A stretch of 64,000 nt of DNA, from positions 142,936 to 206,935 of the forward strand of contig JAZRBM010000008.1 of NCBI GenBank assembly GCA_045635085.1, written 5' to 3'. Position 1 is the stretch's first letter. Each line of letters starts with the position of its first letter. Positions 1,255-56,367 of the stretch are shown here, piece by piece. The notes under the pieces were generated by a model. The model made no database searches. It was not told the DNA's origin and was given only the letters and a program-made list of their open reading frames with translations. A program made the translations under genes and the position numbers. This DNA comes from Congzhengia sp. GTDB lineage: Bacteria; Bacillota; Clostridia; UBA1381; UBA9506.

Positions 1255-2145
1255 CTACAGGGCTTTTATAATGTTTTTATTATCGTCAAAAATTTTTTTA
1301 AATTGTGTGATTGGAAGCGGATTTTTTCCTTTTCCGACTTCAATAGTAAAGGCTGGGATATTGAATTTTTCGATAACCCAATCTTTATATCCTGTGCAGT
1401 CTGTAAGACCATCGGCTAAAACTAACTGATATTTCGTAGTATCAGATATTTTTTTTGCTAGTTCATAAGCATCGGGGGCACACATTCCCTGATATTTATA
1501 AAAAATCTCTTCTCCCTGAGAATGATAAGCAATCACTATATCAGGAAGAATTTTTTTTGTAAAGTTAACAACTGCTTTAGTTTCCGGCTCGCTTTCCGGG
1601 TATTCTCCTGAGTATTTAGTGTAAGATGGCGCAAGTATTCCTTCGCGAAGCTGAATTTCCTTTCCTTTTTGAAAAGATGCGTCGTAGTTGTGATTTAGGT
1701 CAATCCCGCGGATATTTGATTGCCAGACATCTTTAAAATTGCCGCTACTCAAAATATCATAAAGCCTGTTTTTAATAAAAACGGGTAACTCAGGAGTTAT
1801 TCCGTTAATGGAAAGATTTACTCCGTCAGGGTTTACCATTGGTATAAAGTAGACGGTTTTTTCTTGCCAGACGGCAGTATCTCCTGATACATAGGATATA
1901 CACAAATCTTCTAAAAGTGCCGTTAAAAGCATTGATGTAATCCATTCACAACCGTGATGAGCGGCTGTTAGTATAATTTTCTTTTTGCCTTCTCCGAATT
2001 TTATAGAGTGAATTTCCTTCCCTAAAACAGAAAAACCGATAGTTTCGCTAAAAAGAAATGAATAGTTTTTAAAAATCATTTCTAAATCGTCAGAATACAC
2101 TTCGTATGTATATTTTCTGTCAGTTGTAATATGCGTGTTTTTCAT
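1255..2145 (-). CDS. M14-family zinc peptidase (gamma-D-glutamyl-diamino acid endopeptidase-like)
   Basis: HxxE zinc motif in AAHHGCEWITS, IPMVNPDG and DLNHNY are typical of M14 carboxypeptidases. Confidence 0.75.
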   Translation of the reverse strand: MKNTHITTDRKYTYEVYSDDLEMIFKNYSFLFSETIGFSVLGKEIHSIKFGEGKKKIILTAAHHGCEWITSMLLTALLEDLCISYVSGDTAVWQEKTVYFIPMVNPDGVNLSINGITPELPVFIKNRLYDILSSGNFKDVWQSNIRGIDLNHNYDASFQKGKEIQLREGILAPSYTKYSGEYPESEPETKAVVNFTKKILPDIVIAYHSQGEEIFYKYQGMCAPDAYELAKKISDTTKYQLVLADGLTDCTGYKDWVIEKFNIPAFTIEVGKGKNPLPITQFKKIFDDNKNIIKAL

Positions 2146-2995: not shown

Positions 2996-3024
2996 TTGAC
3001 TTTTGAAAGATAATGTGCTAAAAT
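2996..3024 (+). promoter_or_regulatory. sigma-A type promoter of the T-box operon (TTGACT-17-TAAAAT)
   Basis: -35 at 2996-3001, 17-nt spacer with TGc, -10 at 3019-3024. Confidence 0.6.
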
Positions 3025-3038
3025 AATTTTAATTTCAT

Positions 3039-3302
3039 AAAGGCGATGACCAGAAACAAGTAGGTATGTCTGGAGTTTTGAGAGAGTTGCCGGTTGGTGC
3101 GAGGCAATAACGAATGCATACTGAATACATTTTGTGAGCTGCGCACTGAACTTTTAGTAGGCTGCGACGGGCGTTCCCGTTATAGAACTAGGGTATGTTA
3201 GTACCCAACAAGGCTCAAGTCGTGAGATTTGAGTGAACCGAGGTGGTACCACGAGATTATGTCTCGTCCTCTGGATTAAATCTTGAGGGCGGGATTTTTT
3301 TT
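3039..3302 (+). promoter_or_regulatory. T-box riboswitch leader, specifier codon UAC (tRNA-Tyr)
   Basis: Stem I elements are GCGATGA K-turn, AGTA, AGAGAG and GGTGCGAG. The specifier loop reads GAA-TAC-A (3123-3129). F-box CCGTTA is present. The T-box sequence AACCGAGGTGGTACCACGAG (3236-3255) competes with the terminator. Confidence 0.9.
3263..3302 (+). terminator. intrinsic terminator of the T-box leader
   Basis: 9-bp stem CTCGTCCTC/GAGGGCGGG (2 G-U pairs) followed by T8. Its 5' arm is shared with the antiterminator helix. Confidence 0.85.
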
Positions 3303-3339
3303 GTATTCTGCCCAAAATTCAGAAAGGGTGGAAATTTTT

Positions 3340-4884
3340 ATGTTAATCAAAATCAGTTTATTGGTAGTCTTTTTTGCAGTTACGATAGGTATTGGTATCT
3401 ACTGCAGAAAACATTCAACCGATGTTAGCGGGTTTGTTCTGGGCGGACGCTCAGTAGGTCCCTGGCTTACGGCTTTTGCATACGGCACATCGTATTTTTC
3501 TGCCGTTATCTTTGTAGGCTATGCAGGTCAGTTTGGCTGGAAGTTCGGTATTGCTTCTACCTGGATTGGCGTAGGTAACGCTGTTTTAGGGTCGCTTCTT
3601 GCATGGATTGTATTAGGAAGAAGAACGCGACTTATGACAAATCATTTACATAGTTCAACAATGCCCGATTTTTTTGGAAAAAGATATTTAAGTCCTGCAC
3701 TTAAAATTGCAGCGTCGGTTATAGTGTTTATATTTTTAATTCCCTACACAGCATCGCTTTACAATGGTTTATCAAGACTGTTTTCTATGGCGTTTCCCGG
3801 TGTTGAATACTCAACATGCGTTGTAGTAATGGCTATTTTAACCGGTATTTACGTTGTAGCAGGGGGATACATGGCGACAGCTGTCAACGACTTTATTCAG
3901 GGAATTATAATGCTTGTCGGTATTTGCGCTGTAATCGCTGCAGTATTGTCGCAAAATGGCGGGTTTATGCAGTCGCTTTCGGGTCTTGCTGCAGTTGAGT
4001 TAGAAGGTGCTTCGCCCGGCGTGTTCAATTCTTTCTTCGGGCCTGACCCGATGGGCCTTTTATCCGTTGTGGTTCTTACGTCGCTCGGCACATGGGGACT
4101 TCCTCAGATGGTACAGAAATTTTATGCTATAAAAAGCGAAAAGGATATTTCAAAAGGCACAATAATTTCAACAATTTTTGCAGTTGTTGTTGCAGGCGGT
4201 TGCTACTTTTTAGGCGGATTCGGAAGGCTGTTTTCAGATAAACTCACTTTTTTGGCAGATGGCTCAATTGAGGGTGGATTTGATACAATTATTCCTGCGA
4301 TGTTATCAGGACTTCCTGATATTTTAATCGCAATTGTTATAATTTTGGTGTTGTCTGCATCGATGTCTACTTTATCATCGTTGGTTCTGACTTCAAGCTC
4401 AACGCTGACGCTTGACCTCATTAAAGACCACCTCGTTAAAAATATGAGCGAGAAAAAGCAAATCCTTATTATGAGGGCACTTGTTGCGGTGTTTATAGTT
4501 ATTTCAGCAGTTATTGCGTTAAATAAAGATAAACTGTCCGCAATTGCAGATATGATGGGTATTTCCTGGGGAGCACTTGCCGGGGCGTTCTTGGCACCGT
4601 TTTTATACGGGTTATATTTTAAGCGTGCGACAAAAGCATCTGTTTGGGCAAGTTTTATTACAGGATGCGGAATTATGGTTTTAAATATGCTTTTCCGCCC
4701 GCTGTTTCCGGCGTTTATGCAATCTCCGATTCAGTGCGGAGTTGTGGTGATGCTTTCAGGACTTGTGATTGTACCCGTTGTAAGCTTGATTACACCTAAG
4801 ATTGCACCTGATAAAACAGAAGAAATGTTTAGTTGTTACCACCAGAAAGTAACAGTTAATAAACTGGATTCATTGGGCGAATAA
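3340..4884 (+). CDS. sodium:solute symporter (SSS) family transporter
   Basis: About 13 TM segments with SSS-like GGRSVGPW and TWGLPQMVQKFYA. I place the start at ATG 3340 (RBS AAGGGTGGA), because the track start 3283 lies inside the terminator hairpin. Confidence 0.85.
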   Translation: MLIKISLLVVFFAVTIGIGIYCRKHSTDVSGFVLGGRSVGPWLTAFAYGTSYFSAVIFVGYAGQFGWKFGIASTWIGVGNAVLGSLLAWIVLGRRTRLMTNHLHSSTMPDFFGKRYLSPALKIAASVIVFIFLIPYTASLYNGLSRLFSMAFPGVEYSTCVVVMAILTGIYVVAGGYMATAVNDFIQGIIMLVGICAVIAAVLSQNGGFMQSLSGLAAVELEGASPGVFNSFFGPDPMGLLSVVVLTSLGTWGLPQMVQKFYAIKSEKDISKGTIISTIFAVVVAGGCYFLGGFGRLFSDKLTFLADGSIEGGFDTIIPAMLSGLPDILIAIVIILVLSASMSTLSSLVLTSSSTLTLDLIKDHLVKNMSEKKQILIMRALVAVFIVISAVIALNKDKLSAIADMMGISWGALAGAFLAPFLYGLYFKRATKASVWASFITGCGIMVLNMLFRPLFPAFMQSPIQCGVVVMLSGLVIVPVVSLITPKIAPDKTEEMFSCYHQKVTVNKLDSLGE

Positions 4885-4906
4885 GAGAAGTTGAGAGGAA
4901 AAGATA

Positions 4907-6544
4907 ATGCCAATTACAGAAATTCTACAAAAAAACGCAGATTTTTATCCAAATGATGTCAGCTTGGTAGAAATTAACCCCAAGCACGAATCACAAACCC
5001 TTACAACATGGCGCGAATACTCTTTGATTGAGAGCAATTCACGTGAAGTTTACAGAAAGGAAATTACATGGAGTGAGTTTAATAAGCGTGCAAACCGTTT
5101 TGCAAACTTTTTGCTCTCCAGAGGGGTTAAAAAGGGTGACAAAGTAGCAATTCTTTTGATGAACTGCTTAGAGTGGCTGCCCATATACTTTGGTATACTA
5201 AAGGCAGGAGCGCTGGCTGTTCCATTAAATTATCGCTACACATCTGAAGAAATAAAGTATTGTCTTGATTTGTCAGATTCTGACATAATTATATTTGGTC
5301 CTGAATTTACAGGTCGTATTGAGGATATATGCACGCGCGTGAAGCATGTTAAAATGTGGCTTTATTTGGGAGAAGATTGTCCGACATTTGCAGAGAGCTA
5401 TGATGAACTTACGCTTTATTGCTCATCGAAAGCGCCTGCCATTAAATTGACAGATGATGACGATGCCGCGATATATTTTTCATCAGGCACAACGGGATTC
5501 CCAAAAGCTATACTTCACAATCATCAAAGCTTAGTTCATGCAGCGATGACTGAACAGGCACATCATGGACAAACAAAGGATGATGTGTTCTTGTGCATTC
5601 CCCCGCTTTATCATACAGGAGCAAAGATGCACTGGTTCGGAAGCTTCTTAGTCGGTGGCAAGGCGGTCTTATTAAAGGGAATAAAGCCAGAATGGATATT
5701 AAAAACAGCGTCTGAAGAAAAGTGCTCTATCGTGTGGTTATTAGTTCCGTGGGCACAGGACATTTTAGATGCTATTGAGCGTGGAGAAATTAATCTTGAC
5801 AATTACGAGCTTTCTCAATGGAGATTGATGCATATTGGTGCTCAACCGGTGCCGCCAAGCCTGATTAAGCGCTGGAAATCGATTTTCCCGAATCACGCAT
5901 ATGATACAAACTACGGTCTTTCTGAATCAATCGGACCGGGCTGCGTTCATTTGGGTGTTGATAACGAACACAAGGTTGGCGCTATAGGAAAAGCAGGTTT
6001 TGGTTGGGAGACAAAGATTGTCGATGAAAACAAAAATGAAGTTGCACGTGGCGAGGTTGGCGAACTCTTAGTTAAAGGTCCGGGTGTTATGACCTGCTAC
6101 TATAAAGATGAAGCGGCAACGAATGATGTTTTATCTGATGGCTGGCTCTATACCGGCGATATGGCGCAGGAGGACGAGGATGGATTTATTTTCCTGGTTG
6201 ACAGAAAGAAGGACGTTATAATCTCAGGCGGTGAAAATCTATACCCTGTGCAGATTGAAGATTTCTTAAGGAAAAACACAGCAATCTCTGATGTGGCAGT
6301 AATTGGTCTGCCGGATAGTCGTCTTGGCGAAATTGCAGCGGCAATCATTCAGGTAAAAGAGGGTATGACACTTACAGAAGAGGATGTAGTTGATTTTTGT
6401 CTGGATATGCCAAGGTACAAGCGCCCTCACAGAATAATTTTTGCAGATGTTCCAAGAAATCCCACAGGAAAAATAGAAAAGCCCAAGCTTCGCCAGATTT
6501 ACTGCGGAGAAAGCGTTGTTGCACAGCAGAACGAAATAAATTAA
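4907..6544 (+). CDS. AMP-forming acyl/aryl-CoA ligase (ANL superfamily)
   Basis: Motifs YFSSGTTGFPKA, YGLSE, GWLYTGDMA and KDVIISGGENLYP, with C-terminal PRNPTGKIEK. Confidence 0.85.
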   Translation: MPITEILQKNADFYPNDVSLVEINPKHESQTLTTWREYSLIESNSREVYRKEITWSEFNKRANRFANFLLSRGVKKGDKVAILLMNCLEWLPIYFGILKAGALAVPLNYRYTSEEIKYCLDLSDSDIIIFGPEFTGRIEDICTRVKHVKMWLYLGEDCPTFAESYDELTLYCSSKAPAIKLTDDDDAAIYFSSGTTGFPKAILHNHQSLVHAAMTEQAHHGQTKDDVFLCIPPLYHTGAKMHWFGSFLVGGKAVLLKGIKPEWILKTASEEKCSIVWLLVPWAQDILDAIERGEINLDNYELSQWRLMHIGAQPVPPSLIKRWKSIFPNHAYDTNYGLSESIGPGCVHLGVDNEHKVGAIGKAGFGWETKIVDENKNEVARGEVGELLVKGPGVMTCYYKDEAATNDVLSDGWLYTGDMAQEDEDGFIFLVDRKKDVIISGGENLYPVQIEDFLRKNTAISDVAVIGLPDSRLGEIAAAIIQVKEGMTLTEEDVVDFCLDMPRYKRPHRIIFADVPRNPTGKIEKPKLRQIYCGESVVAQQNEIN

Positions 6545-6630
6545 TTGGCAAAAAATTATAATACTTGATTATTGGTATATTTAATGTCATAATATAAAGA
6601 TAGATATACATACAGGAAGGAAAAATGGTA

Positions 6631-8367
6631 ATGAAGAAATTATTACTCGGCAATGCTGCAGTAGCTCGCGGTGCTTATGAAGCAGGTGTTGGTGTTGTTG
6701 CATCGTATCCTGGTACACCGAGTACCGAGATTACTGAAGAAATTGTAAAATTTGAAGAAATATACGCAGAATGGTCCCCTAATGAAAAGGTGGCGGCAGA
6801 AGTTGCAATAGGTGCATCTATTGCAGGTTCAAGAGCTATGAGTTGTATGAAGCACGTTGGATTAAATGTTATGGCAGACCCTGTTTTTACTGTTAGTTAT
6901 ACAGGCGTAAATGGTGGTTTGGTTTTCTGTGTGGCAGATGACCCTGGTATGCACTCGTCTCAAAACGAACAGGATTCAAGACACTATGCCCGCGCTTCTA
7001 AAATTATGATGCTCGAGCCTGCTGATTCATCAGAATGTAAAGAGTTTACAAAGATGGCATTTTCTTTATCGGAAAAGTTTGACACACCTGTATTTATAAG
7101 ACTTTCAACGCGTGTATCACACTCACAGAGCCTGGTTGAGCTTGGAGAGCGTGAAGAAATAGCGCTAAAGCCTTATGAAAAGAATATCGGCAAATTCGTT
7201 ATGATGCCTGCAAACGCGATTAAACGTCACGTTGCAGTTGAAGAAAGAATAAAGGCTCAGGAAGAATTTGCAGAAAATACCGAGCTTAATGCAATAGAAG
7301 AAAATGGGGCAAAAATCGGCGTAGTTTCAGCAGGTATTGCTTATATGTATGCTAAGGAAGCACTAGGTAATGAAGCTGATTATCTAAAACTCGGTATGGT
7401 TTACCCACTGCCTACAAAAAAGATTATAGACTTTGCTAAAAAGTACGACAAGGTTTATGTTATAGAAGAATTAGACCCGATTATTGAGACTCATTTAAGA
7501 GCGCTTGGTATTGATTGTATAGGAAAAGAGGCGTTCACACTACTTGGTGAATATACTCCTAATATGATAAGGGAGGCTGTTTTAGGAAAGGCAGCACCAA
7601 AGAGTGCTACAATCGATGAAGCAATCCCTGTCCGCCCGCCGGTTATGTGTGCAGGTTGTCCTCACAGAGGAACTTTTTATGTTCTTAAAAAACTGGGCCT
7701 TGTAGTTTCAGGAGATATAGGCTGCTATACCTTAGGGGCAGTTGCGCCTCTTCAGTCAGTTGATACTACAATCTGTATGGGAGCATCAGTCAGTGCAGCT
7801 CACGGTATGGCGAAGGCAAGAGGGGCTGAATTTAACAAAAAGCTTGTTTCTGTTATAGGTGATTCAACCTTTATGCATTCAGGCATTACAGGACTCGTTG
7901 ATATTGTTTACAATAAGGGAAACAATACGGTAATCATTCTGGATAATTCTATAACCGGTATGACCGGTCATCAGGAAAACCCGACAACAGGAAAAACAAT
8001 CCGTGGCGAGGCGACAAAGCAGGTTGATTTAATAAAGCTTTGTAATGCCATAGGTATTGATCACGTTGTTGTGGCTGACCCGTTTGATGTAAAAGGCTTT
8101 GAAAAGGTTGTAAAAGAGGAAGTAGAAAGAGAAGAACCATCAGTTATTATTGCGCAGCGTCCTTGTGCACTTTTAAAAGGCGTAAAATATGTTGGACATT
8201 GCAAGATTACAGATAAATGTAAGAACTGTAAAATGTGTATGAAGCTGGGTTGCCCTGCTATTTCAATAAAAGAAAATAAGGTCGTAATAGATGTAACACA
8301 ATGTAACGGTTGTGGACTTTGTGTAAATGTTTGCCCGTTTGAAGCAATAAAGAAGGAGGATGAGTAA
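6631..8367 (+). CDS. iorA: indolepyruvate:ferredoxin oxidoreductase alpha subunit
   Basis: MKKLLLGNAAVARGAYEAG N-terminus, TPP-binding GDSTFMHSG, and C-terminal 2x[4Fe-4S] CxxCxxCxxxCP motifs. ATG 6625 is an alternative start. Confidence 0.9.
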   Translation: MKKLLLGNAAVARGAYEAGVGVVASYPGTPSTEITEEIVKFEEIYAEWSPNEKVAAEVAIGASIAGSRAMSCMKHVGLNVMADPVFTVSYTGVNGGLVFCVADDPGMHSSQNEQDSRHYARASKIMMLEPADSSECKEFTKMAFSLSEKFDTPVFIRLSTRVSHSQSLVELGEREEIALKPYEKNIGKFVMMPANAIKRHVAVEERIKAQEEFAENTELNAIEENGAKIGVVSAGIAYMYAKEALGNEADYLKLGMVYPLPTKKIIDFAKKYDKVYVIEELDPIIETHLRALGIDCIGKEAFTLLGEYTPNMIREAVLGKAAPKSATIDEAIPVRPPVMCAGCPHRGTFYVLKKLGLVVSGDIGCYTLGAVAPLQSVDTTICMGASVSAAHGMAKARGAEFNKKLVSVIGDSTFMHSGITGLVDIVYNKGNNTVIILDNSITGMTGHQENPTTGKTIRGEATKQVDLIKLCNAIGIDHVVVADPFDVKGFEKVVKEEVEREEPSVIIAQRPCALLKGVKYVGHCKITDKCKNCKMCMKLGCPAISIKENKVVIDVTQCNGCGLCVNVCPFEAIKKEDE

Positions 8368-8369
8368 CC

Positions 8370-8945
8370 ATGACTAAAAATATAATGATAGTTGGTGTTG
8401 GCGGTCAGGGTACACTCCTTGCCAGCAGAATTCTGGGAAACACAGTTATAAATGAAGGCTTTGACGTTAAGGTGTCAGAGGTTCACGGTATGAGCCAGCG
8501 CGGTGGTAGCGTTGTAACCTATGTAAAATATGGCGAAAAGGTATTTTCTCCTATTATCGATAAGGGTGAAGCAGATATTATTTTAGCTTTTGAGATGCTT
8601 GAGGCATATCGTGCACTTCCTTTTCTTAAAAGCGGCGGAAAGATAATCGTAAACGGACAAAAAATGAATCCGATGCCTGTAATTACAGGAGCTTGTGAAT
8701 ACCCTGAAAACATTGCAGAAAAAATTGCTCAAAAAGCGCATGTCACCGTAATTGATGCACTGTCACTTGCAAAGGAAGCAGGAAACATAAAAGCAGTTAA
8801 CGTTGTTTTGATAGGCCTTATGGCAAAGTCTACCGACATCGCATACGATAAATGGGTACAGACAATTAAGACAACTGTTCCTGAAAAGTTTCTGGATGTG
8901 AATTTAAAGGCTTTTGATTTAGGGTATGGAATTGAAAGTAAATGA
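8370..8945 (+). CDS. iorB: indolepyruvate:ferredoxin oxidoreductase beta subunit
   Basis: IVGVGGQGTLLASRILG and SQRGGSV motifs. Starts 2 nt after iorA. Confidence 0.9.
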   Translation: MTKNIMIVGVGGQGTLLASRILGNTVINEGFDVKVSEVHGMSQRGGSVVTYVKYGEKVFSPIIDKGEADIILAFEMLEAYRALPFLKSGGKIIVNGQKMNPMPVITGACEYPENIAEKIAQKAHVTVIDALSLAKEAGNIKAVNVVLIGLMAKSTDIAYDKWVQTIKTTVPEKFLDVNLKAFDLGYGIESK

Positions 8946-8950
8946 TAAAA

Positions 8951-8980
8951 AGAGACTGTAGTTTACTACAGTCTCTTTTT
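8951..8980 (+). terminator. intrinsic terminator after iorB
   Basis: 11-bp perfect stem AGAGACTGTAG/CTACAGTCTCT, TTTA loop, then a T-run. Confidence 0.85.
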
Positions 8981-9041
8981 ATATGGGCAAAAATCTGTTG
9001 TATTTTGTATTCTTGTGTGATAAAATTGTATCGGTGATCAA

Positions 9042-10409
9042 ATGAATAAAAACGATATTCTTGAATTAAATATAGAAAAAACCTCATCAGATGGCAGGGG
9101 CATAGGATATATAGATGGGAAAATCTGCTTCGTGCTCGGAACGCTTGCAAAAGAAAAGGTAAAAGCAAAGATATATACCGTTCACAGCTCTTATATTACA
9201 GCAGGGGCAGTAGAGATAATTACCCCATCGCCCTTTCGCCAATACGGATATTGTGACGTGAGCAAAAGCTGTGGAGGTTGTCCTCTTGCGCACATTGTTT
9301 ACCCTCATCAGCTTTTGATAAAACGTGAACATATAGTAGACACTCTGGAAAGAATTGGTCAGGTTAAAAATGCTGATAGTTTGGTGTCTGATACTCTCGG
9401 TATGGAGATTCCAAAGTGCTACCGCAACAAGATGGTCTTTCCCGTAGGTCAAAAAAACGGCAGGATACAAGGCGGGTTCTACGCTGCCAAAAGTCACGAT
9501 GTAATAGCTCTTTCATCATGTGCGGTGGGGGAAGATTGTGCAACAAAGGTGCTTTCTTGTGTTGTTGACTTTTGTAATAAGTCTGGCATTTCGGCTTATG
9601 ATGAAAAAACACACAAAGGCGCCATAAGGCGCGTGTTTGTCCGTACAGGATTTGTGTCGCGTGAGCTTATGGTCGTACTCTCTTCTGCCTGTGAGAAAAT
9701 AAAAAACATTGAAAAACTAATAGAAGAATTAAAAGATTTAGACCTTTGTGGATATTCTTTAAAAAGCATCATATTAAACATCAATAAAAACAAAAACAAT
9801 CTCGTTTTGGGCGATGAAAATATCACACTCTGGGGAGGCGATACAATCTCTGACAGTATTTTAGGACTTGATTTTACTATTTCGCCGCATAGCTTTTTTC
9901 AGGTTAATCCGCTCCAGACCGAAGTGCTTTATAAAAAAGCCCTTGAGTATGCAGACCTTGATTGCGGAAAAACCGTTTTGGATGTTTACTGTGGTATAGG
10001 CACAATATCGCTTTGCGCTGCAAAAAGTGCAAAAGAGGTAATAGGCGTTGAAATAGTTAGCTCAGCAATAGAAGATGCTAAAGAAAACGCCAAGAAAAAC
10101 AAACTTTATAATACAGAATTTATCTGTGGTGCAGCAGAAAATGTTGTCCCCGGGCTTATAGCATCAGGTAAAAGACCTGACGTAGTAATTATTGACCCGC
10201 CGAGAAAAGGCAGTGACGAAAAGACGCTCGCAGCGATTGTCCTTGCCAATCCTGAGCGCGTGGTATACGTTTCGTGTAATCCTGCTACACTTGCCCGTGA
10301 TGTAAAATATCTGGTACAAAACGGATATAAGCTTGTGCGTGCAACGCCCGTTGATATGTTCCCTAATACTGAACATGTGGAGTGCGTGGCGCTTTTGTGT
10401 CGCAAATAA
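9042..10409 (+). CDS. rlmD: 23S rRNA (uracil-5)-methyltransferase, RumA/RlmD family
   Basis: N-terminal TRAM domain, Fe-S cysteines CDVSKSCGGCP, SAM motif VLDVYCGIGT, and DPPRKG. Confidence 0.85.
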   Translation: MNKNDILELNIEKTSSDGRGIGYIDGKICFVLGTLAKEKVKAKIYTVHSSYITAGAVEIITPSPFRQYGYCDVSKSCGGCPLAHIVYPHQLLIKREHIVDTLERIGQVKNADSLVSDTLGMEIPKCYRNKMVFPVGQKNGRIQGGFYAAKSHDVIALSSCAVGEDCATKVLSCVVDFCNKSGISAYDEKTHKGAIRRVFVRTGFVSRELMVVLSSACEKIKNIEKLIEELKDLDLCGYSLKSIILNINKNKNNLVLGDENITLWGGDTISDSILGLDFTISPHSFFQVNPLQTEVLYKKALEYADLDCGKTVLDVYCGIGTISLCAAKSAKEVIGVEIVSSAIEDAKENAKKNKLYNTEFICGAAENVVPGLIASGKRPDVVIIDPPRKGSDEKTLAAIVLANPERVVYVSCNPATLARDVKYLVQNGYKLVRATPVDMFPNTEHVECVALLCRK

Positions 10410-10424
10410 TTTAATATACATAAA

Positions 10425-10454
10425 AAGGAGCAGAGGTCAAGGCCACTGCTCCTT
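10425..10454. terminator. hairpin between convergent rlmD and typA (bidirectional terminator)
   Basis: 9-bp stem AAGGAGCAG/CTGCTCCTT flanked by an A-run upstream and T-rich sequence downstream. Confidence 0.6.
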
Positions 10455-10471
10455 CTAAATTTTAAAATCAA

Positions 10472-12298
10472 TTAATTTTGTTTTTTCATGCGACCTGCCA
10501 ATTTATCGCGGTCTTGTTTTGATAAGATTTTTTTTCTGAGCCTTATGCTTTCAGGTGTGATTTCAACAAGCTCATCATCTGAAATAAATTCTAAACACTG
10601 CTCTAAACTCATAATGATTGGCGGTGTTAATTTAACTGTATCATCAGAACCTGCTGCACGCATATTTGTAACGTGCTTTTTCTTGCAAACGTTAACAGTC
10701 AAATCTTCGTTTTTGGCATTTTCGCCAACGACCATCCCCTCGTAAACCTCAACTCCGGGTCCTAAGAAGAGCGCTCCGCGAAGCTCTGCATTTAAAAGTC
10801 CGTAGGCAACTGTTGTGCCTGTTTCCCAGGCTATCATAGAGCCGCGGTTGCGCGACTGAATTTCGCCTTTAAATTCTTCAAAGCCCTCTAAAATAGAGTT
10901 CATAACGCCATTGCCCTTGGTGTCTGTTAAAAATTCGCTGCGATATCCAATTAGGCCACGGGATGGGATTGTAAATTCAAGTCTCATATATCCATCGTTG
11001 TTAGGATACATATTTTCCATCTGGGCTTTTCTTGAACCGAGTTTTTCAATTACATTACCTGAAAATTCTTCAGGTACATCGACAACTAAGCGCTCCATAG
11101 GCTCTAAAACTTTTCCGTCTTTTTCCTTAAAAATAACCTGAGGACGGGACACCTGAAATTCGTATCCTTCACGACGCATAGTTTCAATCAATATGGATAA
11201 GTGCAGCTCGCCGCGTCCTGAAACTTTGAAACTGTCGGCACTGTCTGTTTCTTCGACCTTTAAGCTTACGTTTGTTTCCAGTTCTCGGAAAAGTCTGTCG
11301 CGTAAATGTCTTGATGTAACAAACTGGCCCTCTCTTCCTGCAAAGGGGCTGTTGTTTACTATAAAGTTCATAGAAATTGTGGGCTCATCCACCTCGATAA
11401 CAGGAAGCGGGTCAATGCAGTCGGTTGCGCAGATTGTTTCGCCGATATTAAAGTCGCCCAGACCTGAGATAGAAATAATATCACCTGCCAAAACGGATTG
11501 TGTTTCGGTTCTTGTTAGGCCTTCAAATGTGTAAATTCTGCCGATTTTAACGTTTGATACAGTTCCGTCTGCACGGCAAAGCGAAACGTTTTCGCCGTAT
11601 TTTACTGTACCGCGGGAAACCTTGCCTACTGCAATTTTTCCTATATATTCATCGTAATCGATGTTAGAGATTCTAAGTTGCAGGGGGTCAGTTGGCGAGC
11701 CGACAGGTGATGGTACACTCTCTAAAATAACATCAAAGAGCGGTGTCATATCGTTTTTTAAATCGTCTAAGGACAAACCGCAGATGCCTTGCTTGGCTGA
11801 CGCATAAACAACAGGAAAGTCTGCCTGGTCGTCGTTTGCACCGAGGTCAATGAAAAGGTCTAAAATTTCGTCGATAACCTCTTCACAACGCGCCTGAGGG
11901 CGGTCAATCTTATTGATAACCACGATAGGTTTAAGGTTTAATTCAAGCGCTTTTTTTAAAACAAATCTAGTCTGGGGCATAGCACCTTCAAAGGCATCTA
12001 CAACCAAAAGCACGCCCTCGACCATACCTAAAACACGCTCAACCTCTCCGCCGAAATCTGCGTGTCCCGGGGTATCTACGATGTTGATTTTTGTACCGTT
12101 ATGAATAACGGATGTGTTTTTTGAAAGGATTGTGATACCGCGTTCACGCTCTAAATCATTTGAGTCCATTACACGTTCGTGAACCTGCTCGTTGTCGCGA
12201 AATATTCCGCTATTTTTAAACATCGCATCGACCAGTGTTGTTTTACCGTGGTCAACATGAGCGATGATTGCAATATTTCTTATGTTATTCTTTTCCAA
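10472..12298 (-). CDS. typA: translational GTPase TypA/BipA
   Basis: [15 protein letters not shown] and [15 protein letters not shown] place the start at TTG (plus 12298-12296), 5 nt after GGAGGA, giving 608 aa. The track extension to 12445 is not credible. Confidence 0.9.
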
Positions 12299-26824: not shown

Positions 26825-28213
26825 TTAAAAATCTGCATTTCCTACAGTTCTTGGGAAAGGCAATACGTCACGGATATTTGACATACCAGTAAGATACATA
26901 ATAGCTCTTTCAAATCCAAGTCCAAAACCTGCATGGTGCGTACCGCCGTATTTTCTGAGGTCTAAGTACCACCAGTAGTCTTTTTCGTCAAGTCCTAGCT
27001 CTTTCATACGTGCAGCAAGTACATCCATACGCTCTTCTCTCTGGCTGCCGCCGATGATTTCGCCGATGCCAGGAACAAGGCAGTCCATAGCAGCCACGGT
27101 TTTTCCGTCATCATTCAATCTCATATAAAATGCCTTTATTTCCTTGGGATAATCTGTAACGAATACGGGTTTTTTGAATACCTCTTCTGTTAAATAGCGC
27201 TCGTGTTCTGTCTGAAGATCGCTGCCCCATTCAACGGGATAGTCAAAATTATCATTGTTTTTCTTTAAAATTTCAATGGCTTCTGTGTATGTTACCCTGC
27301 CGAAGTCAGAGCTTGCAACAAATTTTAAACGCTCAATTAACCCTTTATCAACAAAATTGTTCAAAAATTCCATTTCTTCAGGAGCGTTTTCTAAAACATA
27401 ATTAATAACGAATTTGAGCATATCTTCAGCAAGCTCCATATCGTCAGAAAGGTCAGCAAATGCAATTTCCGGTTCTATCATCCAGAATTCTGCTGCGTGA
27501 CGTGTTGTATTTGAATTTTCTGCTCTGAAGGTAGGTCCAAAGGTATACACATTTCTAAAAGCCATAGCGTATGTTTCGGCGTTTAACTGTCCGCTTACAG
27601 TAAGGTTTGCGCTCTTGCCGAAAAAGTCCTGAGAAAAATCAATGCTGCCATCCGATACAGGGATGTTTTCAAGGTCTAAAGTTGTGACCTTGAACATTTC
27701 GCCTGCGCCCTCACAGTCGCTTGCTGTGATTAGCGGAGTATGGGTATATACAAAATCTCTTTCGTTAAAGAATTTGTGAATAGCATAAGCTGCCAGGCTT
27801 CTTATCCTGAATACTGCAGAATATGTGTTTGTTCTTGGACGAAGGTGTGCTATTGTTCTTAAAAACTCAAACGAGTGTCTTTTTTTCTGCAAAGGATATT
27901 CGGGTGTTGATGCACCCTCTATATCGATTGACTGTGCTTTGATTTCAAAGGGCTGTTTAGCATCGGGCGTTAAAACAAGTTTGCCTGTGATGTTTAACGC
28001 AGCACCTACGTTTTGCGATGCAATTTCTTTATAATTTTCTAATAGTTCGCTTTCTGCAACAACCTGAATATTTTTAAAGAAGGTACCATCATTGATTTCG
28101 ATAAAACCAAAGGCGTTAGATGCTCTTATGGTTCTTATCCAACCTGAAATTTTTACCTCTTGTTCAGCATAGGTTTTTGTGTCTTTATAAATTTGTCTAA
28201 CTGTTGTCTTCAC
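26825..28213 (-). CDS. asnS: asparagine--tRNA ligase
   Basis: Class IIb motifs [20 protein letters not shown] and [10 protein letters not shown] place the start at GTG (plus 28213-28211), 7 nt after AGGAGG, giving 462 aa. Confidence 0.9.
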
Positions 28214-28242
28214 TAATATTCCTCCTGTTTCTAGAAAGCTAT

Positions 28243-29250
28243 TTATAATATGTTTACGCCGCTTGCCTGGCATACGTTAAGTGTGTATTCATCCCAGATG
28301 CTCGACTGAACCTCGCCAATGTGAGCGCAGCCTAAAATCAGCATACAAAGTCTTGATTGACCGATGCCGCCGCCTATAGTAAGTGGCAATTCATCGTTTA
28401 AAAGCATCTTATGAAATGGGAGATTTCGTCTGTCGTCACACCCTGAAATAGTGAGTTGTTTGTCAAGTGCTGCCCTGTCTACACGGATGCCCATTGATGA
28501 AATTTCAACCGCACAGTCTAAGGTTTCGTGCCAGAAGAAAATATCGCCGTTTAGTGTCCAGTCGTCGTAGTCAGGTGCTCTTCCGTCGTGTGGCTTTCCT
28601 GATTTTAGTTTGCCACCAATTTGCATAATAAATGCAGTTTTGTGTACTTTTACAAAAGCGTTCTCGCGTTCTTTTGCGGTCAGGTCAGGGTACATATTTT
28701 CAAGCTCCTGTGTTGTGATAAATGCAACATCACGACACAGATGTGTTTTGAGCTGTGGAAAGCGTGTGTGCAACAGGTCGCTCGTTTCGCAGATAGCGCC
28801 TACTATTGCATCAACTACTTTTTTCAAATATTCAATATTACGCTTTTCTTTTGTAATGATTTTTTCCCAGTCCCACTGGTCAACATATATTGAATGCAGA
28901 TTATCAAGCTCTTCATCGCGTCTTATTGCGTTCATATCAGTATACAAACCGTTGCCAACTGCAAAATCATACTGTTTAAGAGCAAGTCTTTTCCATTTAG
29001 CCAGTGAGTGAACAATCTGGGCGTTTGCTCCAACTGCGGGAATATCAAATGTTACAGGACGTTCAAAACCATTTAAATTATCGTTAAGGCCTGAATTTTC
29101 AGCAACAAACAAAGGTGCTGTGACTCTTTTTAAATTAAGTGCATCTGCAAACTCTTTCTGAAATGTCGACTTGATATTAGATATAGCTCTTTGCATGTCA
29201 TAAGTGTCAAGAGCAGCCTTATATCCTTCTGGTATAAAGGTTTTGTTCAT
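28243..29250 (-). CDS. asnA: aspartate--ammonia ligase (asparagine synthetase A)
   Basis: Close match to the AsnA signature VHSLAKWKR...YVDQWDWEK...SSMGIRVD...[12 protein letters not shown] 29250 follows AGGAG. Confidence 0.9.
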
Positions 29251-29272
29251 GGTAATCAACTCCTGTTACGAT

Positions 29273-30607
29273 TTATGGGTTTAGTCTGTTAGGTCCACGG
29301 AAGATGAACATTGCATCTTTAATGTGCAGGCCGAGCAGAAGCATTGTAAATCTGTCGATACCGAGACCGAATCCACCGTGTGGAGGGCAACCGTATCTGA
29401 AAAACTCGAGGTAAAATTCAACGTCTTTAGCCAAGCCTTTTTCTTCTGCCTGTTTCTTTAATATATCATAGCGGTGCTCACGCTGAGCGCCTGTTGTAAT
29501 TTCTACGCCGCGCCAGATAAGGTCGTAGCCCAAAGGCATTCCTTTTTCGTCTCTCATGTGGTAGAATGCTCTTTTTTCTGCGTTAAAATCGGTTACAAAT
29601 AAGAACTCGTGGTTAAAATGTTTCTTTACCCACTCAAAGCTTAAGCGCTCTGCATCTGTGGTCAGGTCGCCTTTTTCAGAATCGGGTACCGTGTAGCCGA
29701 AATCTTTTTCAAGAGCATCATATAGCTCTGATAGAGTTACAATCGGGAATGGTTGTTTAGGAACTATAATTTCTGTTCCGAACACCTCTTTGATTTCTTC
29801 ACCGTATTTTTCATTTACCTTATCTAAAGCATATGTCAGAATATTTTCTTCCATCTTCATTACGTCGCAATATGACTCAATGTAGCTAATCTCTAAGTCA
29901 AAGCCCGTAAATTCTGTTGTGTGTTTGCTTGTGTAGGATTTTTCTGCACGAAATACAGGACCTATCTCAAAAATCTTTTCAAAGCCACTTGCCATAGCCA
30001 TTTGCTTGTAAAACTGCGGGCTTTGAGCAAGGTATGCACTTCTGTCAAAGTACTTAACTTCAAAAACATCAGAACCGCTTTCACTTGCTGTGCCGATTAG
30101 CTTTGGCGAGTGGATTTCTATAAAGTTATTATCTATTAAATATTCACGCATTGCGCCGACTAATGCAGTCTGTACTTTAAACATAAGTTGATTTTCGTCT
30201 GTTCTTAAGTCAATCCAGCGAAAATCAATTCTTTGGTCGATGCTTGAGCGTTCAACTGCCTGTTTTTTCTTTGTGGCAGGAATTTCTTTTCTTGTGATTG
30301 GCAGAGCATCGGCAACGCTTTCTACGATTAGTTCATCAGGAAGGATTTCAATACCGCCCATTTTAACATATTCGTTTTCAATAACCTTACCGATAACAGT
30401 GATAACACTGTCGCCTGTCAGTATATCCAGTGAGCTTTCCATTTCGGGGTGTAGCTCTTTTTCAACAGTTATCTGAATTTTGCCTGTTATGTCTTTTAAT
30501 ATGATAAATGCCATGGCTTTTGAGTTTCTGAAGTTTTCGATAAAGCCCTGAACCTTCACTGTTTTGCCGATATTGTCTTTTATATCTTTTACATAAGTTC
30601 TCATCAT
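29273..30607 (-). CDS. aspS: aspartate--tRNA ligase, archaeal/type-2 form
   Basis: 444 aa, the short form lacking the bacterial insertion domain. Class IIb motifs FRAEKSYTSKHTTEF and GGFGLGIDR. ATG 30607 follows GGAGGG. Confidence 0.8.
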   Translation of the reverse strand: MMRTYVKDIKDNIGKTVKVQGFIENFRNSKAMAFIILKDITGKIQITVEKELHPEMESSLDILTGDSVITVIGKVIENEYVKMGGIEILPDELIVESVADALPITRKEIPATKKKQAVERSSIDQRIDFRWIDLRTDENQLMFKVQTALVGAMREYLIDNNFIEIHSPKLIGTASESGSDVFEVKYFDRSAYLAQSPQFYKQMAMASGFEKIFEIGPVFRAEKSYTSKHTTEFTGFDLEISYIESYCDVMKMEENILTYALDKVNEKYGEEIKEVFGTEIIVPKQPFPIVTLSELYDALEKDFGYTVPDSEKGDLTTDAERLSFEWVKKHFNHEFLFVTDFNAEKRAFYHMRDEKGMPLGYDLIWRGVEITTGAQREHRYDILKKQAEEKGLAKDVEFYLEFFRYGCPPHGGFGLGIDRFTMLLLGLHIKDAMFIFRGPNRLNP

Positions 30608-30655
30608 TGAGAATCCCTCCAATGCAAAAATTTTCAATTATAACTATACCCAATT

Positions 30656-42293: not shown

Positions 42294-45089
42294 ATGGCAG
42301 AAGATTACGGTAAGACCCTTAATTTGCCGAGCACTGAGTTTTCAATGAGGGCAAATTTGCCTCAGAGAGAGCCTGAAATACTCAAAAGATGGCAAGATGA
42401 AAACATGTATGAAAAGCTGATGGAAAACAATGAAGGAAAGCCTCTTTTCATACTTCATGACGGACCTCCGTATGCAAACGGAAATATGCATATGGGTCAC
42501 GCCTTAAATAAAACGTTAAAGGATGTTATCACAAGATTTAAAAATATGGATGGCTATAAAGCCCCATATATTCACGGTTGGGACACTCATGGTCTGCCTA
42601 TTGAAAGACAGGCTATTAAACAGCTGGGAGTAAATCGTCACGAGATAAGTATTGTCAAATTTCGTGATATGTGTCGTGATTTTGCACTTTCTCAGGTAGA
42701 AAATCAGAAGTCTCAGATCAAACGTCTGGGCGCGCTGGGCGATTGGGATAACTCATATTTGACATTAGCTCCTGAATTTGAAGCAAAACAGATCGAAATC
42801 TTTGGCGAAATGGCAAAAAAAGGCTATATATATAAAGGGTTAAAGCCTATTTATTGGTGCACAGACTGTGAAACAGCTCTGGCAGAAGCCGAGATTGAAT
42901 ATGAAGAAGACAAGACAAGCTCGATTTATGTTAAATTCAGAGTTTCTGAGGACAACGGTGTTTTCAAAGATACAGGTATAGATAAAAATGAAATATATTT
43001 TGTAATCTGGACAACAACAACCTGGACACTTCCCGGTAACGTTGCGATTGCTTTAAACCCTGAGTTTACTTATAGTTTAGTTAAGGCAAATGGGGAATAC
43101 TATGTTTTGGCACATGAGCTTATTGAAAATGTACTTGCAGCTGCAAAAATTTCCGACTACGAAGTTGTGGCTCAGTATACAGGTAAAGAGTTAGAGCTTA
43201 TCCGCTGCAAACATCCGTTTATTGACAGAGAATCTTTGGTAATCGTTGGTGACCACGTTACATTAGATGCAGGTACAGGCTGTGTTCATACAGCTCCAGG
43301 TCATGGTGCAGAGGACTATGTTGCTTGTAAAAATTATAAAGAAATCCCGATTATCGTTCCTGTTGACGGCAAGGGATACTTAAATGAATTGGCAGGAGAA
43401 TTTGCAGGATTATTCTACGAAGAATCAAATGCTGAGATTATCAAAAAGCTAAAAGAAGTGAATGCACTTTATGCTATAGAAGACATTATCCACCAGTATC
43501 CACACTGCTGGAGATGTCATAAGCCTATTGTATTTCGTGCTACAGAGCAGTGGTTTGCATCTGTTGATGAAATTAAGGACGCAGCAATTGAGGCGATCAA
43601 GGGTGTTCGCTGGATTCCAAAATGGGGCGAAGACAGAATTACTGGTATGGTTGCAGACAGAAGCGACTGGTGTATCTCAAGACAGAGAACATGGGGCGTT
43701 CCTATTCCTATATTCTACTGCAAGGATTGTGGCAAAGAATTAATTACAGAAGATTCTATCAAGGCTGTGTCAAAGCTCTTTGCAGAAAAAGGCTCTACAG
43801 CATGGTATGAAACTGATGCAAGTGAAATTTTGCCATCCGGTACAAAATGTGAATGCGGATGCACAGAATTTACAAAAGAAAAAGACATTATGGACGTTTG
43901 GTTCGACTCCGGTTCATCGCACTCTGGTGTATTGGATGTTAAAGAAGGCCTGCAGTTCCCTGCTGACCTCTATTTAGAAGGTAACGACCAGTACAGAGGC
44001 TGGTTCCAGTCATCACTTTTAACATCAGTTGCAGCTCGTGGACAGGCGCCTTATAAGACAGTTATCACACACGGTATGATTGTGGATGAGACGGGCGAAA
44101 AAATGTCAAAATCAAAGGGCAATGGTATAAGCCCTCAGGATATTATTGAAAAGTATGGTGCAGATTTACTCCGTTTATGGGTAGTATCGGCTGACTATAA
44201 AACAGACATGAGAATTTCTGACGGTATCTTAAAGCAGTTGTCAGAATCATACAGAAAAATAAGAAATACAGCAAGATATATACTTGGAAATATCAGCGAC
44301 TTTAATCCTGAAGCAGATATGGTGGCAACAGAGGAGCTTTTAGATATTGACAAGTGGGCACTCATAAGACTTTCAAAGCTTACAGAAAAGGTTTTAGACG
44401 CTTACAGAAATTACGAATTCCATATCGTTCAACACGCAATTCACAATTTCTGTATAGTTGATATGAGTAATTTCTATCTTGATGTTATAAAAGACAGACT
44501 CTACACAGAAAAGGCAGACAGCAAGGCACGTCGTGCGGCACAGACTGTAATGTATAAGGTTTTAGATTCTTTAGTTAGAATGTTAGCACCTGTTTTAGCC
44601 TTTACAAGCGAAGAAATCTGGGCAAGTATGCCTCATACAGCTTCTGATAAGACAGAATATGTTATCTTAAATGATATGCCAAAACCTACACCTGAGCTTT
44701 ATGACGAGGTGTTTGAGTCCAAGTGGGCAAGACTTATGTTGGCTAAAGCCGATGTTTCAAAGGCGCTTGAGACGGCTCGTGGTGCTAAGGTTATAGGTAA
44801 ATCATTAGGAGCTAAGGTAGAGATTTTTGCAGATGGTTCATACTATGATTTATTAAAGGAAATGGAAAGTGACCTGTTTACTTACTTTATCACATCAGGT
44901 GCAGAAGTTAAGCCTTTAGCTGATGCAACTGACGATGCTATACTTGGCGAAACAGGTATTAAGGTATTAGTATCTGTAGCAAGTGGAGATGAGTGTGAAC
45001 GTTGTTGGATTCATTCTGAAACTGTAGGCAAAGACACAGTACATCCTACATTGTGTGCAAGATGTGCAAGTGTTCTTAAGGAGGACTAA
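42294..45089 (+). CDS. ileS: isoleucine--tRNA ligase
   Basis: HMGHALNK (HIGH), KMSKSKGN, a CP1 editing domain, and a C-terminal zinc finger CERCW...CARC. Confidence 0.97.
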   Translation: MAEDYGKTLNLPSTEFSMRANLPQREPEILKRWQDENMYEKLMENNEGKPLFILHDGPPYANGNMHMGHALNKTLKDVITRFKNMDGYKAPYIHGWDTHGLPIERQAIKQLGVNRHEISIVKFRDMCRDFALSQVENQKSQIKRLGALGDWDNSYLTLAPEFEAKQIEIFGEMAKKGYIYKGLKPIYWCTDCETALAEAEIEYEEDKTSSIYVKFRVSEDNGVFKDTGIDKNEIYFVIWTTTTWTLPGNVAIALNPEFTYSLVKANGEYYVLAHELIENVLAAAKISDYEVVAQYTGKELELIRCKHPFIDRESLVIVGDHVTLDAGTGCVHTAPGHGAEDYVACKNYKEIPIIVPVDGKGYLNELAGEFAGLFYEESNAEIIKKLKEVNALYAIEDIIHQYPHCWRCHKPIVFRATEQWFASVDEIKDAAIEAIKGVRWIPKWGEDRITGMVADRSDWCISRQRTWGVPIPIFYCKDCGKELITEDSIKAVSKLFAEKGSTAWYETDASEILPSGTKCECGCTEFTKEKDIMDVWFDSGSSHSGVLDVKEGLQFPADLYLEGNDQYRGWFQSSLLTSVAARGQAPYKTVITHGMIVDETGEKMSKSKGNGISPQDIIEKYGADLLRLWVVSADYKTDMRISDGILKQLSESYRKIRNTARYILGNISDFNPEADMVATEELLDIDKWALIRLSKLTEKVLDAYRNYEFHIVQHAIHNFCIVDMSNFYLDVIKDRLYTEKADSKARRAAQTVMYKVLDSLVRMLAPVLAFTSEEIWASMPHTASDKTEYVILNDMPKPTPELYDEVFESKWARLMLAKADVSKALETARGAKVIGKSLGAKVEIFADGSYYDLLKEMESDLFTYFITSGAEVKPLADATDDAILGETGIKVLVSVASGDECERCWIHSETVGKDTVHPTLCARCASVLKED

Positions 45090-55368: not shown

Positions 55369-56367
55369 ATGGAACAAGCAAAAAAGAGAATTTTCTCGGG
55401 AGTTCAGCCATCAGGTGATTTAACTCTCGGTAATTATATAGGTGCTATTAAAAACTGGGTATCTCTTCAGGATGACTATGAGTGTCTTTATTGTATCGTT
55501 GATTTGCACGCGATCACAGTTCGCCAGACACCCCAGGAGCTAAGACGCAGAACACTTGAGGTTTTGATGCAGTATTTAGCGGCCGGTATCGCCCCTGAAA
55601 AGTCTTGTGTATTTATCCAGTCACATGCCAGTACACACGCAGAGCTTTCGTGGATTCTAAGCTGTAATACACAGATGGGCGAGCTTTCCCGTATGACACA
55701 ATTTAAAGAAAAATCAAGGACACATGCTGATAATATCAACGCAGGACTCTTTACATATCCCGTTTTGATGGCGGCAGATATTTTAGCATATCAGGCAGAT
55801 TTGGTGCCTGTTGGTCACGACCAGCTTCAGCATATAGAGCTGGCAAGAGATATAGCTCAGAGATTTAACCATTTTTACGGTGATACATTTACAATTCCCG
55901 AGGGCTATATGCCAAAGGTAGGAAAGCGTATTATGAGCCTCCAGACACCTGAAAACAAAATGTCAAAATCAGACCCTAATCCTAATGGGTTTATAAGACT
56001 TTTAGATGATACCGACACGATTATGAGAAAGTTCAAGCGTGCAGTAACGGATTCTGGCAGTGAGATAAAAGCATCTCCTGAAAAGCCCGGCGTTACAAAC
56101 CTTTTATCAATTTATTCTGCTGTTACAGATAAGAGTATAGAAGATGCAGAAAAGGAATTTGAGGGAAAAGGCTATGGTGATTTCAAACTGGCTGTGGGCG
56201 AAGCGGTAGCAAGCGCATTAAAACCGCTGAAAAATGAATTTGAAAAGCTTTCAAAGGATAAAGCATACGTAGAATCTGTTTATAAAAATGGCGCACAAAC
56301 GGCAAACTACTTATCAAATAAAACACTTCGTAAGGTTTATAAAAAAGTTGGATTTGTAGCAAAGTAG
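55369..56367 (+). CDS. trpS: tryptophan--tRNA ligase
   Basis: FSGVQPSGDLTLGNYIGA, GHDQLQHIEL and KMSKS. Confidence 0.95.
   Translation: MEQAKKRIFSGVQPSGDLTLGNYIGAIKNWVSLQDDYECLYCIVDLHAITVRQTPQELRRRTLEVLMQYLAAGIAPEKSCVFIQSHASTHAELSWILSCNTQMGELSRMTQFKEKSRTHADNINAGLFTYPVLMAADILAYQADLVPVGHDQLQHIELARDIAQRFNHFYGDTFTIPEGYMPKVGKRIMSLQTPENKMSKSDPNPNGFIRLLDDTDTIMRKFKRAVTDSGSEIKASPEKPGVTNLLSIYSAVTDKSIEDAEKEFEGKGYGDFKLAVGEAVASALKPLKNEFEKLSKDKAYVESVYKNGAQTANYLSNKTLRKVYKKVGFVAK

Follow-up and report, generated by a model that had tools for sequence, protein, structure and literature searches.

A T-box leader specific for tRNA-Tyr stands before four genes in a 64 kb stretch of the Congzhengia sp. genome (contig JAZRBM010000008.1; hereafter the window, with coordinates counted from its first nucleotide). 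The genes encode a sodium:solute symporter (SSS) family transporter, an AMP-forming acyl-CoA ligase of the ANL superfamily and the two subunits of indolepyruvate:ferredoxin oxidoreductase (IOR), IorA and IorB. We propose that the leader probably gates this operon according to the charging of tRNA-Tyr, and that the operon salvages an aryl acid into tyrosine. T-boxes switch on genes when their cognate tRNA is uncharged, and their targets raise the supply of the corresponding amino acid. IOR catalyses the reversible conversion of arylpyruvate, CoA and oxidised ferredoxin into arylacetyl-CoA, CO2 and reduced ferredoxin, and AMP-forming ligases drive thioester formation. The logic of the T-box, the reversibility of IOR and the type of the ligase together suggest a route of import, activation, carboxylation and transamination.

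According to this scheme, when tRNA-Tyr is charged, a terminator in the leader (3261–3302) would halt transcription; uncharged tRNA-Tyr would instead pair with the UAC specifier codon and the UGGU bulge of the leader, allowing the antiterminator to form and transcription to run on into the operon. The symporter would import 4-hydroxyphenylacetate, or possibly tyrosine itself, and the ligase would convert 4-hydroxyphenylacetate to its CoA thioester, with ATP going to AMP. IorAB, running in reverse with reduced ferredoxin and CO2, would turn the thioester into 4-hydroxyphenylpyruvate, from which an aminotransferase, encoded outside the operon in the window genome and inside it in some relatives, would form tyrosine. 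A PaaK-type ligase under the control of a Phe T-box would be the counterpart in relatives, leading from phenylacetate to phenylalanine.

The T-box leader

The leader matches the Rfam T-box family (RF00230) at 3037–3274 of the plus strand with 127.9 bits, against a gathering score of 93 (E 4.9e-28). The covariance match extends over model positions 1–219 of 219, and it is the sole match to Rfam at gathering thresholds across the whole window. A sigma-70-like promoter, TTGACT-17 nt-TAAAAT with an extended −10 TG (2996–3024, plus strand; 10 of 12 matches), has the top score in the region and lies 13 nt upstream of the model start. The expected parts of a T-box follow in order: Stem I with its K-turn, specifier loop, AG bulge and distal loop, then Stem III, and finally the antiterminator with the T-box sequence. 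This sequence, GGUGGUACCACG (3241–3252), lies within the antiterminator, and GGUGGUACCRCG is kept across the leaders of relatives. The UGGU bulge (3244–3247, plus strand) is predicted to pair with a tRNA 3′ end ACCA, that is, with A as the discriminator. Bacterial tRNA-Tyr has A73, which suits a UGGU bulge; the window itself contains no tRNA gene.

Folding revealed an intrinsic terminator at 3261–3302 (plus strand), consisting of an 11-bp stem (arms 3261–3271 and 3285–3295) and a U-run. It folds with a ΔG of −26.2 kcal/mol (z −3.0), a stability that not one of 200 shuffled sequences equalled. The 5′ arm of this terminator also serves as the 3′ strand of the antiterminator, the helix with which the model ends (3262–3271); the two structures are therefore mutually exclusive, as in transcriptional T-boxes. 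The initial annotation had described a hairpin at 8951–8980 as the only clean intrinsic terminator, a statement that does not hold, as the leader has its own. The score over the full model, the S-turn geometry of the specifier loop and the UGGN bulge with its competing terminator identify the leader, as judged from its sequence and fold, as a bona fide transcriptional T-box specific for tRNA-Tyr, the response to the tRNA being predicted.

The specifier codon assigned by the covariance-model alignment is UAC (Tyr), at 3126–3128 of the plus strand in the context GAA-UAC-A. The specifier loop is formed by the strands ACAAGUA and GAA-UAC-A, in which the S-turn elements AGUA and GAA are followed by the codon, one nucleotide and the helix. 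The RF00230 search thus bears out the initial annotation on both of its points concerning the leader, namely that it is complete and that its specifier is UAC. According to a profile alignment, UAC occupies this position in the window and in the operon leaders of all 40 relatives that have one (see below). Parsing of the loop was mis-anchored for six of these loci (L015, L020, L026, L029, L063 and L065); the profile alignment gives TAC in all.

The operon and its relatives

The four genes are all on the plus strand. The transporter (3340–4884) belongs to the SSS family (PF00474, 182.8 bits); it scores 202.9 with the equivalog model for PutP (TIGR02121, cutoff 515.5) and 156.9 with that for PanF (cutoff 328), both scores lying far below the cutoffs, and its substrate could be tyrosine or an aryl acid, judging from sequence and context. 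The ligase (4907–6544, 545 aa) has both the N-terminal AMP-binding domain (PF00501, 256.3 bits) and the C-terminal domain (PF13193, 41.1 bits) that define the ANL superfamily. IorA (starting at 6625 or 6631 and ending at 8367) and IorB (8370–8945) both score above equivalog cutoffs (TIGR03336, 739.6 bits with a cutoff of 650.9, and NF005325, 289.3 bits with a cutoff of 230), and they contain the domains PF02775, PF01855, PF00037 and PF01558 (TPP-binding, 4Fe-4S). The intergenic gaps are 22 nt between the transporter and the ligase, where no terminator was found, 80–86 nt between the ligase and iorA, and 2 nt between iorA and iorB. Family matches and coordinates thus agree with the four co-directional genes and the spacing that had been read from the open reading frames. 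A hairpin search placed a 17-bp hairpin with A- and T-runs at its flanks, a bidirectional intrinsic terminator, at the end of the operon (8945–8982). The neighbouring genes are unrelated housekeeping genes (M23 peptidase, RlmD, TypA and LysA).

To see how widely this arrangement is shared, one genome per species was scanned. Relatives of the ligase were found in 593, and the best 80 (75–93% identity) were used; clustering of ligases at 90% identity gave more than 120 clusters with 82–92% identity to the ligase of the window. By their labels, the relatives are nearly all metagenome-assembled genomes from the guts of yak, goat, sheep, cattle and deer, and are assigned to Oscillospiraceae, Acutalibacteraceae, Congzhengia or just Clostridia. 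The order ligase-IorA-IorB is kept in nearly all loci of sufficient length. We counted T-boxes with a leader profile search in the 75 relatives with at least 350 nt of upstream sequence; 40 of them have a homologous T-box just ahead of the operon. The leader stands before the SSS gene in 21 of the 40 and directly before the ligase gene in 19, and it is retained with the ligase even at loci where iorAB is not adjacent (L046 and L051). Median gaps within the operons of relatives are 28, 15 and 1 nt, the gap of 15 nt being that between the ligase and iorA. The synteny of T-box, SSS, ligase and iorAB that had been suggested as a check therefore appears in these species as a link of T-box, ligase and iorAB, and always with a UAC specifier.

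Some loci show variations on this arrangement. At L032 (5852–5943) and L038 (5931–5976) the leader profile gave weak matches, in its 3′ part only, upstream of the ligase; the T-box core motif is absent from them, and by sequence these segments may be remnants of a lost T-box. L027 has a second bona fide T-box beside the Tyr T-box, divergently oriented (1512–1742, minus strand; 116.1 bits), whose specifier by loop geometry looks like AUC (Ile). In five Acutalibacteraceae loci (L040, L042, L043, L044 and L045) the ANL ligase is present as a copy of 80% identity, with neither a T-box nor iorAB. In L040, L042, L043 and L044 (at about 4500–7640) this copy follows genes for an ECF-S-like membrane protein, a DUF1893 protein and a small protein with a weak match to the MIF/tautomerase family, three upstream genes that are missing in L045. 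MIF-family enzymes tautomerise phenylpyruvate and 4-hydroxyphenylpyruvate.

Further genes accompany the operon in relatives. Directly after iorB, 27 relatives have a gene for a PaaK-family phenylacetate-CoA ligase (542.1 bits with TIGR02155, below the equivalog cutoff of 646.3), and at most of these loci a small ACT-pair protein (PF19571) comes after PaaK. A class-I aminotransferase gene follows iorB in eight relatives, and the Tyr T-box is present in three of these. L056 has a second T-box, situated between iorB and PaaK-ACT (T-box 10075–10319, 104.7 bits, above the Rfam threshold; PaaK and ACT 10394–12162); it has its own promoter-like site, and its specifier context is GAA-UUC-C (Phe). A scan of metagenomes with the PaaK of L056 yielded nine more contigs, including L081–L087 and L113, with a T-box directly before PaaK-ACT, and the specifier was UUC in all eight contigs in which it could be called. 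The Phe leaders are closely paralogous to the Tyr leaders and differ from them at the middle base of the specifier, in keeping with the ease with which T-boxes are known to change specificity through one substitution (PMC2494555, summarising Grundy et al.). Judged by the specifiers, the ANL ligase is thus linked to a Tyr T-box and PaaK to a Phe T-box.

Two further features of the PaaK loci were seen. In two metagenomic contigs, a tyrS gene with its own UAC T-box lies immediately downstream of iorA-iorB-PaaK-ACT (T-box and gene at 5104–5386 and 5575–6798 in L137, and at 4987–5267 and 5455–6681 in L144). A conserved membrane protein of about 223 aa is encoded between iorB and PaaK in L052, L066 (9972–10643), L068 and L077; it gave no significant family match, and may be a small-molecule permease for the pathway.

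Direction, substrate and alternative readings

The initial annotation held that the operon runs anabolically. This view gains support from the UAC specifier, from the linkage in 40 of 75 relatives, from the aminotransferase and PaaK-ACT neighbours, from the Phe T-boxes, from the short gaps within the operons and from the origin of the relatives in the guts of ruminants and other herbivores; from these we infer the direction of flux, as well as the substrates. The chemistry has precedents. In Methanococcus maripaludis, aryl acids feed aromatic amino acid synthesis via IOR (Porat 2004, in the account given of it by PMC4162585), and rumen bacteria make phenylalanine from phenylacetate (Allison 1965, as cited in PMC7356843). 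An anabolic role of IOR has also been proposed in Methanobacterium and Bacteroides, and the AMP-forming enzyme that adjoins IOR in Bacteroides was shown to be an arylacetate-CoA ligase (PMC13285125). The same study argues, for the IOR of Bacteroides, that an AMP-forming type of ligase favours synthesis of the thioester; the ANL ligase and PaaK both belong to this type. Of the genes expected for a pathway of the M. maripaludis type, the window has a putative aryl-acid ligase and IOR but no aminotransferase, which eight relatives have in the operon.

More broadly, we lean, with somewhat less assurance than for the window operon itself, towards regarding these loci as T-box-gated modules of aryl-acid salvage in gut and rumen Oscillospirales, in which the specifier would report the substrate of the adjacent CoA ligase (UAC for the ANL ligase and 4-hydroxyphenylacetate, UUC for PaaK and phenylacetate) and a shared IorAB would work in reverse.

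Several observations weigh against an anabolic, tyrosine-responsive operon with 4-hydroxyphenylacetate as its substrate. The same genes have no T-box in 35 of the 75 relatives (about 47%): the core motif is absent from all of these loci, and six of them that were scanned (L021, L024, L033, L034, L048 and L066) contain no other Rfam element at gathering score. T-box control is thus frequent in the clade, but not universal. PaaK-ACT mostly lies within the Tyr-controlled transcript in relatives, and the pairing of specifier and ligase is therefore not strictly one to one. In the window, the AT-rich spacer between the ligase and iorA (6545–6624) is unusually long and holds two overlapping, weak promoter-like sites with 9 of 12 matches each, and by this sequence iorAB may have an internal promoter and be expressed independently in this genome. 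No aminotransferase, PaaK or ACT gene of the operon type was found within the 64 kb. The ligase reaches no NCBIfam cutoff, the top named model being NF004837 (long-chain fatty-acid-CoA ligase; 407.9 against 476). Its best PDB matches, at 185–248 bits, are FadD13, FadD5, feruloyl-CoA synthetase, malonyl-CoA synthetase and 4CL. The ligase thus has no close characterised homologue, and its substrate is therefore assigned from context alone.

This last point underlies the alternative that fares best, though we consider it unlikely: the operon would be anabolic and responsive to tyrosine, yet the ANL ligase would activate another acid, and the T-box would not report the ligase substrate. Candidates are phenylacetate or indoleacetate broadly, 3-(4-hydroxyphenyl)propionate, 4-coumarate or a non-aromatic acid. 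Assignment by homology failed, as NCBIfam and PDB returned generic ANL relatives (fatty-acyl, feruloyl, malonyl and coumarate ligases). Since the NF004837 cutoff is not reached, the protein should not be called a fatty-acid ligase, and TIGR02155 (PaaK) is absent from the best 25 of its 108 NCBIfam matches. PaaK, which belongs to a known family of arylacetate ligases and is usually co-transcribed, could itself supply 4-hydroxyphenylacetyl-CoA, and the ANL ligase also occurs without iorAB in other contexts (L040, L042–45 and L074–76). On the other hand, IOR needs an arylacetyl-CoA to yield an arylpyruvate, and the operon of the window has no second ligase that could provide one. Moreover, the T-box tracks the ANL ligase and not PaaK, which, where it is separately regulated, has a Phe T-box. 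From this genomic context we infer that the ANL ligase is a 4-hydroxyphenylacetate-CoA ligase.

It is less probable still that the leader is a switch for tyrosine uptake, in which case the SSS protein would import tyrosine, and the downstream ligase and iorAB would be passengers or have a promoter of their own. T-box-regulated amino acid transporters are common (PMC2494555), the SSS protein is closest to the amino acid carrier PutP, and the promoter-like hexamers in the spacer before iorA would fit such an arrangement. A T-box serving the transporter alone is nevertheless rejected, because 19 of the 40 T-box relatives have the leader directly before the ligase, with no transporter. The short, terminator-free gap between the transporter and the ligase in the window also argues against it, as does the median of 15 nt between the ligase and iorA in relatives.

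A catabolic or redox/energy operon that oxidises arylpyruvate, with the T-box as a regulatory quirk, is very improbable. IOR is catabolic in Pyrococcus, and also in Clostridioides difficile, where the CD2382-iorAB-butK operon is SigL-dependent (PMC7438776). In Bacteroides thetaiotaomicron, an IOR beside an AMP-forming ligase is reported to act catabolically, taking phenylalanine to phenylacetate (Zhu 2023, as cited in PMC13285125), which also weighs against the biosynthetic reading. However, breakdown of tyrosine while tRNA-Tyr is uncharged would be counterproductive, and the partner of IorAB here is an AMP-forming ligase rather than an ATP-conserving phosphotransacylase/kinase pair or an ADP-forming synthetase. 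In addition, UAC is invariant in 40 species.

Least credible of all is a misreading of the specifier by one nucleotide, such that the leader would sense tRNA-Thr through the +1 frame: ACN encodes Thr in every relative, so that conservation by itself is undecisive, but we reject this frame because the covariance model places UAC at the specifier positions, the covarying pair that flanks the loop yields the canonical arrangement, in which one nucleotide separates the codon from the helix, the same arrangement recurs before tyrS (UAC) and a leuA-like gene (CUC), and the sister leaders before PaaK differ in the middle base, as UUC. The pair in question joins the nucleotide after UAC-N with the nucleotide before the 7-nt 5′ strand of the loop, NNNAGUA. 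It forms in 36 of the 40 leaders, as A-U in 31 and, with compensatory change, as G-C in 5; the base 3′ of UAC itself is A in 30 relatives, C in 5, G in 4 and U in 1. The same calling rule gave UAC before the tyrS genes of L137 and L144 (TIGR00234, 422.6 and 418 bits), whose leaders can be aligned with those of the operon and have the specifier in the same column. It gave CUC (Leu) for a T-box of L086 (3117–3395) that precedes the leuA-like gene (3421–4827), directly downstream of a PaaK-ACT pair with a Phe T-box. The covariation of the adjacent pair, the agreement of the tyrS and leuA controls and the shared column of the tyrS specifiers thus fix the UAC frame.

Precedents, significance and further loci

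What appears to be new here is the T-box connection together with the ANL-type ligase; the T-box RNA, the enzymes and the idea of an anabolic IOR are known. The founding Tyr T-box, the leader of Bacillus subtilis tyrS, shares with the window leader the RF00230 family, the UAC specifier, the UGGU sequence and the terminator/antiterminator switch. The targets here, however, are an acyl-CoA ligase and a ferredoxin-dependent 2-oxoacid oxidoreductase rather than an aminoacyl-tRNA synthetase, a de novo operon or a lone transporter. NhaC-family tyrosine transporters of the yheL type (Wels et al. 2008, PMC2494555) likewise have a Tyr T-box before a transporter gene, with the specifier predicting the substrate. 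The transporter is of the SSS and not the NhaC family in the window, and it is optional, as 19 of the 40 T-box relatives do without it.

Among the IOR systems, the aryl-acid pathway of M. maripaludis (IOR MMP0713/0714) has the same proposed chemistry, from aryl acid through aryl-CoA and arylpyruvate to the amino acid, in the description found in PMC4162585. That system is archaeal and has no T-box, as archaea lack T-boxes, whereas in the window an ANL-type ligase is combined with control by tRNA charging in the leader. The iorAB genes of Bacteroides have an AMP-forming arylacetate-CoA ligase gene adjacent, as here (PMC13285125). That ligase is of the PaaK type, there is no riboswitch and the direction in vivo is disputed; here an extra, uncharacterised ANL ligase of 545 aa is proximal to the T-box. 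CD2382-iorAB-butK of C. difficile is a Firmicute example of iorAB orthologues that have a link to an aromatic aminotransferase (PMC7438776). It is transcribed from a SigL promoter, has a butyrate kinase for ATP conservation and serves the oxidative, catabolic branch of Stickland metabolism, with neither an AMP-forming ligase nor a T-box.

The T-box regulon survey of Wels et al. (PMC2494555) lists no IOR or arylacetate-CoA ligase genes. In the searchable literature, the main regulon surveys and RegPrecise/TBDB aside, we found no report that a T-box controls IOR or arylacetate-CoA ligases, and papers that mention a T-box as well as iorA or a ferredoxin oxidoreductase draw no connection between them. 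The T-box surveys of Vitreschak (2008) and Gutierrez-Preciado (2009) are not known to list IOR. The claim of the initial annotation that IOR plus a CoA ligase under T-box control had not been described therefore appears to stand as regards the T-box link and the ANL ligase; it does not extend to anabolic use of IOR with aryl acids, which is known in M. maripaludis and proposed in Bacteroides.

Ferredoxin oxidoreductases such as IOR can work in either direction, and which one prevails in gut anaerobes is a matter of debate. Because a T-box turns its genes on only when the cognate tRNA is uncharged, the conserved Tyr T-box of the ligase-IOR genes and the Phe T-box of PaaK offer independent regulatory evidence for biosynthetic use, and, if our proposal is true, the T-box would serve as an in vivo indicator of the running direction of a reversible oxidoreductase. 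From the pairing one can also predict, in a form open to testing, the substrate of a ligase family that is so far uncharacterised and occurs in at least 593 species-representative genomes. Host-relevant metabolites such as phenylacetylglutamine and p-cresol derive from phenylacetate and 4-hydroxyphenylacetate; under amino acid starvation these bacteria would, if the proposal holds, consume the precursor acids and rebuild protein amino acids from them. The genes are candidates for those behind the classical synthesis of aromatic amino acids from aryl acids in the rumen, and would then provide a genetic basis for the labelling results that Allison obtained there in the 1960s. The functions of T-boxes would be extended to the salvage of precursors by reductive carboxylation.

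In the remainder of the window, a partial annotation contains no aro or tyrA genes; housekeeping genes were seen. Four aminoacyl-tRNA synthetase genes are present, asnS, a non-discriminating aspS (with asnA between them), ileS and trpS, at 26825–30637 (minus strand), 42294–45089 (plus strand) and 55369–56367 (plus strand), and none of them has a T-box. Finally, locus L079 contains a T-box-like leader (6193–6469) that scores below the Rfam threshold and has an apparent UUC specifier. The open reading frame that follows (6469–8064), which is cut by the contig end, combines HTH_19, Cupin_2 and AMP-binding domains in one frame, and may represent a fused or mis-joined regulator and acyl-CoA synthetase.

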